Notes under the pieces: generated by a model
Told to the model about the DNA's origin: nothing
Seen by the model: the letters and a program-made list of their open reading frames with translations, nothing else
The model's database searches: none
In this document: positions 38,531-47,416 of the stretch, one piece after another
Position numbering within the stretch: position 1 is the stretch's first letter
Layout of the letters: each line of letters starts with the position of its first letter
Position numbers and translations under genes: made by a program
DNA from: Escherichia coli 042
GTDB taxonomy: Bacteria > Pseudomonadota > Gammaproteobacteria > Enterobacterales > Enterobacteriaceae
NCBI RefSeq assembly: GCF_000027125.1
Contig: NC_017626.1
Direction: 5' to 3' (one strand)
Length of the DNA: 64,000 nt

Positions 38531-39421
38531 TTAGTGGTTTTGCGCGATAAGATCGTCTGGCGAAAGTCGGGTCAGCGTCAGGATGACTTCGTAGTCAAAT
38601 CCTTTTTCCAGCATCTCCTGAGCAATACGCAGGGCTTCTTCGTGTTTGCCCTGCATTGCGCCTTCTTCACGTAATCTGTCAGCAATGGTCATCAGTTTCT
38701 CCTTTTCTTGTGGTGCGCGTTCCGCTATCTCACCAATAAATGCACGGAAACGCTGGGCATCCCCCGTTTGTAATACGTAATTAAACAGGGCTTTTAGCTG
38801 TCTGTCATTAGTGTTCCCTGTAACTAGCAGCGAAACAATTTGGTCGACTAATCCCAACAGATCGCGCTGACGAATATGTTTCTGAATTAACTCCAACAGC
38901 GCCATTTTGCGATGTTGCATAATCTCGTCATCCGGCACCACGGTAATATCCACCAGCGGAAAAGCCGATGAATAAATTTTGCGGGCAATCGCAGGCTCGG
39001 CAAATTCATCAAGCCAGCAGAGTGAATATGGATAAGGGCTTCTGCAACCATGATAAAACAGCATCGGGATCACTAATGGAAGCTCTTTATAGCCCGCATC
39101 AAGATGGTTTTGCATCGCCGCAATGGAATAGCGCATCATGCGAAAAGCCATTAATTCCTCTGGCTTACTTTGGTGCTCTATCACCACATAAATATAACCC
39201 GCTCCCTCCTGCGTTTTCACAGACCACAAGAGGTCGGAATAATATTGCCGCAGGTCTTCATCAATAAAACTGTTTGGTTCCAGTTTAAGCGTTGTTAAAT
39301 CACACAGTTTGCGCAGCGGCGCGGGAAGATGAATATCAATAAAATCCCGCGCGGTGTCTGGATGGCGTAAAAAAGATTTAAATACCGCATCATGCGGCGT
39401 GGAAGTTGTCGATATTGTCAT
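38531..39421 (-). CDS. rpnB: Rpn-family recombination-promoting nuclease / transposase_31-like protein (RpnB, YfcI)
   Basis: 296-aa ORF; PD-(D/E)xK-type N-terminal region (YIYVVIEHQ); recognised as YfcI/RpnB. Confidence 0.85.
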
Positions 39422-39616
39422 GGCGTTCCGTCACCCCTCAAATTTAAGATGACGCGACAATAACCACGATTTACACCCAATGCAGCAGGCAGTTTTTATC
39501 TTTGGACAGCGAATTCAGAAGTATTTTTAGCGGACTGCAACTTTTACATTTCAGCGGAAGCGGACTCGCAAATTCCCCATGAAATACTCCGGCAGCGTTA
39601 GCCACCGGAGGGGGAA

Positions 39617-40390
39617 TTATTTCAGCGAACCTTTAAGGAACTGTTGCAGACGAGGACTTTGCGGGTTACCGAATAACTGTTCTGGCGCGCCCTCTTCTTC
39701 TATTTTCCCCTGATGGAGGAAAATGACGTGAGTAGAAACATGGCGAGCAAAGCCCATTTCGTGGGTCACCACCACCATGGTTTTCCCCTCTTCTGCCAGT
39801 TGCTGCATAATACGCAACACTTCGCCTACCAGTTCAGGATCGAGCGCCGAGGTAGGTTCATCAAACAGTAAAACTTCCGGTTCCATCGCCAGCGCCCGCG
39901 CGATAGAAACACGCTGTTGCTGACCACCGGACAGGTGCACCGGGTATTTCCCCTGCGCACGTTCGTCTATCCCGACTTTCGCCAGATACTTCACCGCCCG
40001 CTCGCGCGCTTCCTGCTTGCTCAGGCCCAACACCTGAATCGGCGCTTCCATGACGTTTTCCAGCACCGTCATATGGCTCCAGAGATTGAAGTGCTGGAAT
40101 ACCATCGTCAGGCGTGTGCGCAGTAAGCGCAGCTGATTTTTATCGGCGACTTTGAGTTGACCATCTTTGTCGCGCACCAGATTGATCGTCTGGCCATTGA
40201 CCACGATCGACCCTTCACTCGGTTTTTCGAGGAAGTTAATGCAGCGCAGAAAGGTACTTTTCCCCGATCCCGACGATCCGATGATGCTTATGACATCTCC
40301 GGCATTCGCTTGCAGTGAGACCCCTTTCAGCACTTCGTGTTCGCCGTAGCGTTTGTGCAAATCGATAACGTTTAATTTATTCTCGGACAT
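39617..40390 (-). CDS. hisP: Histidine/basic amino acid ABC transporter ATP-binding protein
   Basis: 257-aa ORF; Walker [13 protein letters not shown] signature LSGGQQQR, Walker [12 protein letters not shown]. Confidence 0.96.
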
Positions 40391-40630
40391 CGTATTCTCA
40401 GTGCGTTGAAGAAGGTTTCACATGCTGCAACCAGCGTTTTTCCGCTCTGCGAAAGAGGCTGATCAGGACATAAGAGACCCCTTTCAGCACTTCGTGTTCG
40501 CCGTAGCGTTTGTGCAAATCGATAACGTTTAATTTATTCTCGGACATCGTATTCTCAGTGCGTTGAAGAAGGTTTCACATGCTGCAACCAGCGTTTTTCC
40601 GCTCTGCGAAAGAGGCTGATCAGGACATAA
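40317..40630. repeat. Perfect 157-bp direct tandem duplication (2 copies: 40317..40473 and 40474..40630) spanning the hisM 3-prime end / hisP 5-prime end
   Basis: Character-by-character comparison shows both copies identical; the 4 nt after copy 2 (gaga) equal the first 4 nt of the unit (junction microhomology). Confidence 0.95.
40398..40547 (-). CDS. Chimeric micro-ORF created by the duplication: first 24 codons of hisP fused in frame to the last 24 codons of hisM (49 aa)
   Basis: Manual translation from the duplicated hisP start (40545..40547): [49 protein letters not shown]-stop; carries the duplicated native hisP ribosome-binding context. Expression unproven. Confidence 0.45.
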
Positions 40631-41271
40631 GAGATGATTAAATAGAGCACCGCGGCAATGCCGAAGGCGGTAAAAGGTTGATACGTGGCGGCGTTAATAT
40701 CGCGGGCTATTTTCAGCAGATCCGGCACCGTGGCCGTAAACGCCAGCGCAGTAGAGTGCAGCATCAGGATCACTTCGTTGCTGTATGCCGGTAACGCAAT
40801 ACGCAGCGCAGAAGGCAAAATAATGCAGCGATACATTTTAAAGGTCGAGAAGCCATAGGCTCTGGCGGCTTCGATTTCCCCATGCGGCACTGAACGGATC
40901 GCTCCGGCAAAAATCTCGGTAGTGTAAGCGCAGGTGTTGAGCGTCAGCGCCAGCACGGTACAGTTCAGGCCACTGCGAAAAAAGGCGTTAAGGAACTCGG
41001 TTCCCTTAACAATTTCCAGCGTGTACATGCCGGAATAGAACACCAGCAACTGAACATACAGCGGCGTACCGCGAAAAATATACGTAAATAACCAGATTGG
41101 AAACTGGATGTATTTATTACTTGAGACGCGACCAATCGCCAGAAACAGCGCCATGACTCCGCCTATCACTACCGACAAAATCAGCAGCCACAGGGTGATC
41201 GCCACGCCAGTAAAGCGATAACCGTCGGTCCACAGCAGTGGTTTCCAGTATTCATGTAAGATTTCGATCAC
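40555..41271 (-). CDS. hisM: Histidine ABC transporter permease
   Basis: 238-aa ORF; polytopic permease; start overlaps hisQ stop. Confidence 0.96.
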   Translation of the reverse strand: MIEILHEYWKPLLWTDGYRFTGVAITLWLLILSVVIGGVMALFLAIGRVSSNKYIQFPIWLFTYIFRGTPLYVQLLVFYSGMYTLEIVKGTEFLNAFFRSGLNCTVLALTLNTCAYTTEIFAGAIRSVPHGEIEAARAYGFSTFKMYRCIILPSALRIALPAYSNEVILMLHSTALAFTATVPDLLKIARDINAATYQPFTAFGIAAVLYLIISYVLISLFRRAEKRWLQHVKPSSTH

Positions 41272-41954
41272 AGGTCAGCCCTCTTCACACCCACGGAGTA
41301 GCGGCGCTCAAGGAACAGCAGCACACCATTGGAAACGGTGGTGAAAACCAGGTAAATCACGCCACAAACGATGGCGAAATAGAACGGTTCCCAGGTACTT
41401 TTGCCTGCCAGTTGGGTGGCTTTGACCACATCTTCCAGGCCAAGTAACGAAACCAGAGCGGTAGATTTGAGGATCACCTGCCAGTTGTTGCCAATGCCTG
41501 GCAGGGCGTAACGCATCATCGCCGGAAACATGATCCGCCGAAACACTTGCCCACGAGTAAAACCGAACGCCGTCGCCGCCTCTATATGCCCTTTCGGCAC
41601 AGCCATAAACGCGCCACGGAACGTTTCGGTAAAGTAAGCACCGTAGATAAAACCGAGAGTAATAATACCTGCGACCATCGGATCAATATCAATCTGCCCG
41701 ACGCCCATCGCCTCCGTCACCGTGTTTAGTGCAATCTGCAAACCGTAGAAAATCAGCAGCATCAACACCAAGTCCGGCACGCCACGAATCAGCGTGGTGT
41801 AGCCTTCGAAAATCAGCCCCGAAAGCCGATTTTGCGAGAGCTTACCGCCAGCGCCAATTAAACCGATGATTACAGCGAGCACTACAGAGCTGATAGCCAG
41901 CTCCAGCGTGACGAGCGCACCCTGTAAAATAACACCTGAAAACCCATACAACAT
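41268..41954 (-). CDS. hisQ: Histidine ABC transporter permease
   Basis: 228-aa ORF; ABC permease. Confidence 0.96.
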   Translation of the reverse strand: MLYGFSGVILQGALVTLELAISSVVLAVIIGLIGAGGKLSQNRLSGLIFEGYTTLIRGVPDLVLMLLIFYGLQIALNTVTEAMGVGQIDIDPMVAGIITLGFIYGAYFTETFRGAFMAVPKGHIEAATAFGFTRGQVFRRIMFPAMMRYALPGIGNNWQVILKSTALVSLLGLEDVVKATQLAGKSTWEPFYFAIVCGVIYLVFTTVSNGVLLFLERRYSVGVKRADL

Positions 41955-41995
41955 GCAGCCTGTCCTGTCGTGTGTGGTGAATTACCGCCTCTTGT

Positions 41996-42019
41996 CTCCC
42001 TCCGGTTACCTGAAGGGAG
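41996..42019 (-). other. Intercistronic stem-loop between hisJ and hisQ (ctccct-N12-agggag)
   Basis: Inverted repeat read from sequence in the 89-bp hisJ-hisQ gap; analogous intercistronic hairpins in the his transport operon are described as mRNA-stabilising elements. Confidence 0.5.
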
Positions 42020-42043
42020 CGGGCTTTCTTTCACCGATGGCGA

Positions 42044-42826
42044 TTAACCACCATAAACATCAAAATCGAAGTACTTTTTCGCTAATTTCTCGTAAGTACC
42101 GTCAGCGCGCATTTCGGCAAAGGCTTTGTTCAGTGCCTCGCGCAGTTCGTTATCTTCTTTACGCAGGCCCATGCCGGTCCCTACGCCAAACAGTTTTTCA
42201 TCTTTAACAGACGGGCCACCGAATTTGTAATCTTTACCGACTGGCTGCTTGAGGAAACCTTCGCTGGCAGCGACCTCATCCTGGAACGCGGCATCAATAC
42301 GTCCGGCAGTCAGGTCAGAATAAATGTTGTCCTGCCCCTGATACGAGACGATTTCAATGCCTTTTGGTGCCCAGTGTTCGTTACCGAACGTCTCCTGGGT
42401 GGTGCCCTGCAATACGCCTACCCGCTTGCCTTTCAGCGACTCGACTGTCGGCTGAATGTCGGAATTTTTCGCCACCACCAGACGAGAATCGGCAGCGTAC
42501 AGTTTGTCGGTGAAGGCAATTTCTTGCTGACGTTTTTCCGTAATGGAAAGCGATGACATGATGGCGTCAATCTTCTTCGCTTTTAAGGACGGGATTAACG
42601 CATCCAGTGGGTTTTCGACAAACGTACATTGCGTATTGATGCGTTTGCACAACTCCTTCGCCAGATCGATATCGAAGCCAACCAGTTCGCCTTGTGAATT
42701 TTTTGATTCAAATGGCGCATAGGTCGGATCGGTACCGATGCGGATGTTTTGCGGAATCGCAGCAAACGCCGCAGTTGCGCTGGAGAAGGCCAGAACCAGA
42801 GAGAGTGATAGCACCAGTTTTTTCAT
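42044..42826 (-). CDS. hisJ: Histidine-binding periplasmic protein
   Basis: 260-aa ORF with signal peptide ([22 protein letters not shown]); about 70 percent identical to adjacent argT. Confidence 0.96.

Positions 42827-46965: not shown

Positions 46966-47416
<451 letters not shown>

Follow-up and report, generated by a model that had tools for sequence, protein, structure and literature searches.

In assemblies of Escherichia coli, approximately 13,000 strain-variable tandem-duplication loci have been recorded (Wei et al., 2026, preprint, 10.64898/2026.02.28.708716). Across species, approximately 50% of such loci bear microhomology of >3 bp as opposed to 1.6% expected at random, and microhomology-mediated tandem duplication (MTD) accounts for most of the strain-variable tandem duplications (10.64898/2026.02.28.708716). 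MTDs are flanked by short direct repeats, comprise two copies joined without filler, and are absent from near-identical relatives (PMC8639346; 10.64898/2026.02.28.708716). They are also reversible, and revert at a much higher frequency than they form (Dan et al., 2021, PMC8639346). The hisJQMP operon has been found amplified in laboratory evolution, and is a known target of selection under histidine limitation (PMC6415869).

We analyzed a 64-kb stretch of DNA (hereafter termed the window), in which two perfect tandem copies of a 157-bp unit straddle the boundary between hisM and hisP. This structure is quite likely a genuine and recent MTD at a GAGA/TCTC pair, which has formed recurrently, creates an in-frame open reading frame termed the relay ORF, and is probably tolerated. 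The hisM-hisP duplication illustrates a known class of mutation in a clean natural form, and the allele itself is new to the literature found, in which no paper mentions a duplication at hisM-hisP. The features of the locus are as follows (coordinates are those of the window).

39617 to 40390, minus strand: hisP, intact, 257 aa; the protein is unchanged at every single-copy locus compared.
40317 to 40473: copy 1 (hisP-proximal), which reads on the minus strand as the 3'-terminal 76 nt of a hisM sequence, a spacer of 7 nt, and nucleotides 1-74 of the true hisP.
40391 to 40397, minus strand: spacer 2, 7 nt, from the relay-ORF stop to the true hisP ATG.
40398 to 40547, minus strand: 49-codon relay ORF, encoding HisP residues 1-25 joined in frame to the C-terminal 24 residues of HisM.
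40452 to 40495: 44-nt probe stretch over the novel junction between 40473 and 40474, missing from single-copy genomes.
40474 to 40630: copy 2 (hisM-proximal), identical to copy 1, containing the real hisM 3' end, a 7-nt spacer, and 74 nt of the duplicated hisP, beginning with its start codon.
40548 to 40554, minus strand: spacer 1, 7 nt, from the hisM stop to the relay-ORF ATG.
40555 to 41271, minus strand: hisM, intact, 238 aa, with a GTG start overlapping the hisQ stop.
40631 to 40634: GAGA microhomology of 4 bp (TCTC on the minus strand), which also opens both copies (40317-40320 and 40474-40477).
41268 to 42826, minus strand: hisJ (42826-42044) and hisQ (41954-41268), which precede hisM in the operon and are unaltered.

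According to the ORF list, the operon lies on the minus strand in the order of hisJ, hisQ, hisM, and hisP, followed by rpnB, with hisQ and hisM overlapping by 4 nt. The original prediction of a perfect 157-bp duplication at the hisM/hisP junction was borne out by both direct sequence comparison, in which the two copies (40317-40473 and 40474-40630) were identical as strings, and Tandem Repeats Finder (40317-40634, period 157, 2.0 copies, 100% matches, 0 indels, score 636). A perfect match over 157 bp excludes chance. The unit make-up proposed therein (76 nt of hisM, a 7-nt spacer, and 74 nt of hisP) agreed with the ORF coordinates: in copy 1, nucleotides 1-74 of hisP correspond to 40390-40317, the spacer to 40391-40397, and the 76-nt end of hisM, stop codon included, to 40398-40473. 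The same holds for the claimed widening of the gap, as the hisM stop and the hisP ATG are separated by 164 nt in the window (40391-40554) but by 7 nt in annotated single-copy genomes. Both genes are intact as anticipated; they encode full-length proteins, the sequences of which were found unaltered in single-copy genomes. Besides the hisM-hisP repeat, the tandem arrays in the 64-kb window comprised only a REP-like array at 46966-47416. The latter consists of five tandem 91-bp units (96% matches) of REP/BIME-like palindromic sequence, and, judging from the EcPNK004 annotation, lies between cvpA and dedD.

The gaga sequences at the copy ends support the proposal, also made originally, of a microhomology-flanked duplication of the slippage or illegitimate-recombination type. 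In single-copy genomes (seen at the single-copy locus L012), two GAGA sites reside 157 nt apart. Misalignment between the two GAGA/TCTC tetranucleotides during replication or repair, one in the last transmembrane-helix codons of hisM and the other in codons 24-25 of hisP, would recopy the intervening segment. The locus shares the attributes of MTDs. The copies are exact and arranged head to tail, the segment is single-copy in close relatives including those in the window's own lineage (0 mismatches), the unit ends have a 4-bp identity in the single-copy state, and the join is exact without filler. Furthermore, formation at the same microhomology pair was recurrent, being found in the window lineage and the lineage of a second locus, L004 (see below for the details). 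The 157-bp unit is within the range reported for MTDs, and the hisM-hisP repeat is likewise expected to revert. GC skew places the replication fork and his transcription in the same direction. Given the large number of strain-variable duplication loci in E. coli, one more locus, even a recurrent one, is unsurprising. However, two aspects set the hisM-hisP duplication apart. Unlike MTDs within genes, its unit spans a gene boundary, disrupts neither gene, and makes an in-frame mini-ORF, and three independent events have one endpoint in common despite longer microhomology pairs nearby.

The other classes of repeat match the locus less well. As in contingency (phase-variable) repeats, a copy-number change that is expected to be reversible takes place at an environment-facing locus for nutrient uptake. 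Nevertheless, the hisM-hisP repeat occurs only in one or two copies with a unit as long as 157 bp, provides no frame on/off switch, and gives no sign of high-frequency switching; the carriers examined possessed exactly two copies with the flanking genes in frame. Amplifications of transport operons that depend on RecA or are flanked by IS/REP (PMC6415869) involve the same operon and the same route, duplication, but raise the dosage of whole genes or operons, whereas the event at hisM-hisP covers 157 bp and adds no gene copy. An inserted mobile element or REP/BIME also disagrees with the locus, where the extra 157 bp are an exact local copy with no notable inverted repeats.

The junction created by the duplication is scarce among public genomes. 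The 44-nt probe over the junction, each half of which is too short to pass the E-value limit alone, matched none of the 5,426 complete E. coli genomes, while a control probe of equal length over the normal repeat-to-hisM boundary matched 5,425 of them. Queries of 1.2 kb and 24 kb matched essentially all of the complete genomes, always as two pieces, and the genome match of the 1.2-kb query was shorter than the query by exactly 157 bases. The exact junction 26-mer, TCAGGACATAAGAGACCCCTTTCAGC, was detected neither in 100,044 species-representative genomes nor in JGI metagenome contigs. The duplication is a rare and derived allele rather than a conserved feature of E. coli; had the structure been fixed across E. 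coli, as the original prediction considered, the probe would not have scored 0 of 5,426.

Zero divergence between the copies might also be produced in silico, if contig ends overlapping by 157 bp were joined unmerged or if reads were mis-joined. Several short-read contigs (L008, L014, and L007) indeed break inside the repeat, and a clear case of such an artefact is known elsewhere (L018). We nevertheless regard this explanation as extremely unlikely. The exact look-up of the 49-aa ORF retrieved 13 contigs, and its carriers include GCA_036600035.1, GCA_052648375.1, and the ENA metagenome assemblies ERZ28623246 and ERZ28580464. GCA_027979275.1 also has the junction, and in GCA_036600595.1 a partial ORF of 30 aa was found at a contig end. 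Altogether, the identical junction occurs in at least seven other public assemblies, which comprise both isolate genomes and metagenomes, stem from differing projects and assemblers, and include contigs up to megabase size (carriers from different projects are L002, L003, L004, L005, L008, and L014/L017). In all of the carrier loci examined, the junction was the same and there were exactly two, identical copies. One of the carriers (L004) represents a different genomic background and bears its own SNPs in both copies. Microhomology of 4 bp is expected in only ~1.6% of random joins (10.64898/2026.02.28.708716), and the 64 kb contain no other such duplication. As to the contig breaks, they are the expected outcome of a 157-bp repeat exceeding the assembly k-mer. 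Thus, we regard the duplication as genuine on the basis of the agreement between assemblies and dismiss the artefact that had been listed among the original alternatives. A tandem duplication with zero divergence in an assembly can be real.

The contig L018 (GCA_029782595.1, JARCCX010185099.1) carries, in positions 1-2059, three successive pseudo-tandem hisP duplications of 252, 217, and 190 bp. These are imperfect, with 94-98% identity to E. coli, in contrast to the perfect 157-bp repeat. An apparent HisP-HisP fusion on the same contig (P0108) was considered as a third junction type but dropped, as the contig looks mis-assembled.

Among the 5,426 complete E. coli genomes, the nearest were approximately 98.9-99.1% identical to the window (24-kb segments 1-24000 and 28000-52000). 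With the nearest complete genomes only ~99% identical, the lineage of the window is missing from the complete-genome set. In a larger assembly collection, the RpnB and YfcH alleles of the window were found in ~194-202 blocks. Single-copy contigs (L012/L015) and a single-copy NCTC genome (L013/L016) showed 0 mismatches to the window over ~9 kb, and the duplication is thus recent. From these comparisons, we regard the duplication as a young minority allele in its own lineage. The original prediction offered three sources for the zero divergence between the copies: a very recent event, active maintenance, or an artefact. The first is favored by the identity of the single-copy relatives over ~9 kb, the second is not needed, and the third was rejected above.

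The lineage of the window is otherwise free of SNPs but polymorphic for a 1-nt deletion that truncates yfcG (ATTGCCTGC to ATTGCTGC, at ~36997 of the window). The yfcG deletion was found with the duplication in L003 and without it in L012, and the intact yfcG was found with the duplication in the window, L002, and L014, and without it in L013. This four-gamete pattern suggests repeated gain or reversion, although chimeric sequences are possible in L003 and L012, both from metagenome assemblies. The duplication may have been gained or lost repeatedly inside the window's lineage. In the NCTC genome (LR134238.1; L013/L016), hisM, hisP, yfcF, and yfcE appeared fragmented, with 5-8 single-base gaps but no substitutions per alignment against the window. 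The fragmented genes in LR134238.1 are probably assembly indel errors and not real pseudogenes.

The second background is represented by L004, a 1.27-Mb contig of GCA_052648375.1, which shares the junction but shows 260 evenly spread differences from the window over 10,150 positions; the two lineages are 97.4% identical (2.6% divergent). Both copies in L004 share two differences from the unit of the window, at unit positions 127 and 133. When collapsed to one copy, L004 showed 0 mismatches over 9,993 positions to a complete single-copy genome, Z0117EC0036. The local SNPs in both copies, together with the identical single-copy genome, point to an independent origin. If the junction alone had been imported, a crossover within 24 nt would be required, as both L004 copies carry the local alleles at positions 127 and 133. 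These patterns indicate that an independent origin is far more parsimonious than recombination for the junction in L004. The identical junction has been shown to arise independently in at least two lineages of E. coli.

A third background carries a sister event. The homology search with the chimeric peptide encoded by the relay ORF found one other chimera (P0003), in which HisP residues 1-52 are followed by the same HisM tail. P0003 stems from a duplication of 241 bp with identical copies, present in L006 and L007 (possibly one sample). The microhomology of this duplication is 2 bp, and its hisM-side end is located 1 nt from that of the 157-bp event. The collapsed L006 and a complete single-copy genome of ST80 had 0 mismatches over 9,993 positions. 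A longer synthetic chimera used as the query yielded no further genuine chimeras among the best 120 of 2,371 hits, which were mostly partial HisP/HisM fragments. The assumption of a strain-specific, one-off event in the original prediction does not stand against the recurrence in the L004 lineage and the 241-bp event sharing the hisM-side breakpoint. The recurrence of one junction should not be taken as shared ancestry.

A mosaic sequence was observed in L005 (ENA ERZ28580464, scaffold_7511; 39601-40315 equivalent), which matches the window without differences in rpnB, the repeat, and hisM but has 13 SNPs confined to hisP, in a tract ending 2 nt from the start of the repeat. This tract is either recombinant or a metagenome chimera. 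L005 was not counted as a fourth independent background, since it is a 2.4-kb metagenome scaffold, possibly chimeric, with a mosaic unmatched in complete genomes (best 99.0%).

The two copies are identical in each genome, yet differ at two positions between the lineages. This is a classic signature of concerted evolution, and would be consistent with an old duplication held identical by gene conversion or a single allele moved between lineages by recombination. However, each of the backgrounds includes single-copy genomes with 0 mismatches in the flanks, so that the duplications are younger than any flanking SNP, and the SNPs that separate L004 from the window are distributed uniformly, without any imported tract. 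We thus find an ancient or transferred duplication barely credible and retain recent, separate formation in each background.

The duplication creates a new ORF at the boundary. The relay ORF runs from the duplicated hisP ATG to the duplicated hisM TGA, which lies 7 nt ahead of the true hisP ATG. As 74 and 76 nt sum up to 150 nt, the frame is maintained throughout. Its product is recorded at NCBI as a hypothetical protein, WP_404854071.1, the longest contig being 5.24 Mb. Among the genes of the operon, hisP has the weakest Shine-Dalgarno pairing (-2.7 kcal/mol, compared with -4.9 to -6.3 kcal/mol for hisJ, hisQ, and hisM), and its Shine-Dalgarno sequence overlaps the hisM stop. The 83 nt preceding the true hisP are the native ones, with a stop codon at the wild-type distance of 7 nt from the ATG, and the predicted accessibility of the start site was equal in the duplicated and collapsed alleles. 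We propose that ribosomes would initiate at the duplicated hisP start much as they do at the normal one, translate the relay ORF, and terminate just ahead of the true hisP in its native context, leaving no long untranslated gap.

In terms of known translationally coupled ABC-importer operons, the true hisP with the stop 7 nt upstream and the wild-type 83-nt upstream sequence is arranged in the same way, whereas the terminating ribosome would come from the extra 49-codon ORF instead of hisM, with one more step of termination and re-initiation. The geometry of coupling would be relayed rather than lost. The original wording that the coupling is rewired was too vague, as the in-frame relay ORF keeps a stop 7 nt before hisP. 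Under this model, we expect the output of HisP to be unchanged or modestly lowered via the single added re-initiation step. The duplication is probably tolerated and nearly neutral, and the basic 5.8-kDa chimeric peptide, which holds only half a transmembrane helix, is probably a by-product. When the reading frame happens to be maintained, a duplication spanning the border of two cistrons can be tolerated.

The choice of the breakpoint is less readily explained. In the 414-nt region around the boundary, there are 204 pairs of direct repeats of at least 4 nt with a spacing of 50-400 nt, among them that of an 8-mer, TGCTGAAA, of which the copies are 229 nt apart. In-frame chimeras of up to 85 aa could be generated by 491 possible events with at least 2 nt, 43 with at least 4 nt, and 4 with at least 6 nt of microhomology. 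Nevertheless, the three events found (two junction types) start within 1 nt of one another on the hisM side. With many alternative pairs available, microhomology alone does not predict one endpoint common to three events. The common hisM-side site may reflect a local hotspot or filtering by selection, beyond plain neutral MTD.

A mutational hotspot at the hisM-side breakpoint (minus strand, between ...TTTAATCA and TCTC...) might be a replication pause site, a site of nicks or breaks, or an AT-rich melting patch. Duplications beginning at such a hotspot would be much commoner than expected from the length of their microhomology. It is suggested by three independent events of two junction types with starts no more than 1 nt apart, regardless of longer microhomology pairs, and the breakpoint coincides with the end of a T-rich tract that follows a small stem. 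Folding of single-stranded DNA around the three breakpoints was, however, no more stable than that of shuffled sequences (z of -0.07 to -0.88), no notable inverted repeats were present, and the number of events is three, from a protein-based search that detects only in-frame chimeras of limited length. We consider a hotspot possible but on the unlikely side; it is compatible with, and would refine, the explanation by MTD. As one specific form of this idea, a hairpin or pause site was rejected, as 80-nt single-stranded windows on both strands folded no better than shuffles and the inverted-repeat scan of the locus gave nothing notable; the one weak stem next to the breakpoint is unconvincing as a DNA structure. 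An internal promoter in the duplicated hisM 3' end was also rejected, with no sigma-70-like site in 39400-41400.

The reading frame is the second regularity of the events found. Among the 107 short proteins with the HisP N-terminus, the chimeras were all in-frame fusions to the HisM tail and the remainder were truncated or frameshifted hisP. No out-of-frame hisP'-hisM' chimera was found among these proteins, the search covering short ORFs with small numbers. The in-frame-only outcomes fit the removal of out-of-frame events.

Alternatively, the allele could be positively selected, if the relay ORF or the chimeric peptide shifts the ratio of HisP to HisQ/HisM or the activity of the transporter. 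This reading is in accordance with the same junction being independent in at least two backgrounds, the 241-bp variant with the same HisM tail, the in-frame nature of all events found with no out-of-frame chimera in the set above, and hisP appearing to depend on coupling (the weakest Shine-Dalgarno). The operon is, in addition, a target of selection under histidine limitation (PMC6415869), and the carrier clone was sampled by several studies. On the other hand, the allele is in none of the complete genomes and is a minority in its own lineage (13 contigs versus the ~194-202 blocks with the RpnB/YfcH alleles of the lineage), the context and accessibility of the start site are unaltered, and the in-frame pattern is equally explained by purging of harmful out-of-frame events. 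Positive selection of the allele is thus unlikely in our assessment. Were it at work, which is just as improbable, the duplication would act as a reversible switch tuning the uptake of histidine and basic amino acids, and the in-frame recurrence would be explained.

A combination of the two ideas, in which the hisM-hisP boundary is a preferred site of reversible duplication that is kept because the relay ORF tunes HisP versus HisQ/HisM or because the peptide interferes with the transporter, is quite doubtful. If it were true, the locus would be a natural and reversible expression switch for a histidine/basic-amino-acid ABC importer via translational coupling, and the common hisM-side breakpoint would mark a site-specific hotspot or a narrow functional window. 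For the remaining puzzle, namely the common hisM-side breakpoint and the exclusively in-frame outcomes, there is a small chance that a genuine hotspot or a selected tuning allele is responsible. If the hotspot is true or the relay ORF alters the dosage of HisP, the locus would offer a simple system for the determinants of duplication rates in bacteria and for subunit ratios set by coupling in ABC importers. We still prefer a tolerated MTD for the allele as a whole.

Many of the short ORFs among the hits of the chimeric peptide (P0004-P0107), which belong to E. coli, Klebsiella, and Salmonella, have a HisP N-terminus that leads into out-of-frame sequence. It is thus common for hisP to be truncated or frameshifted in public assemblies, or to contain sequencing errors there.
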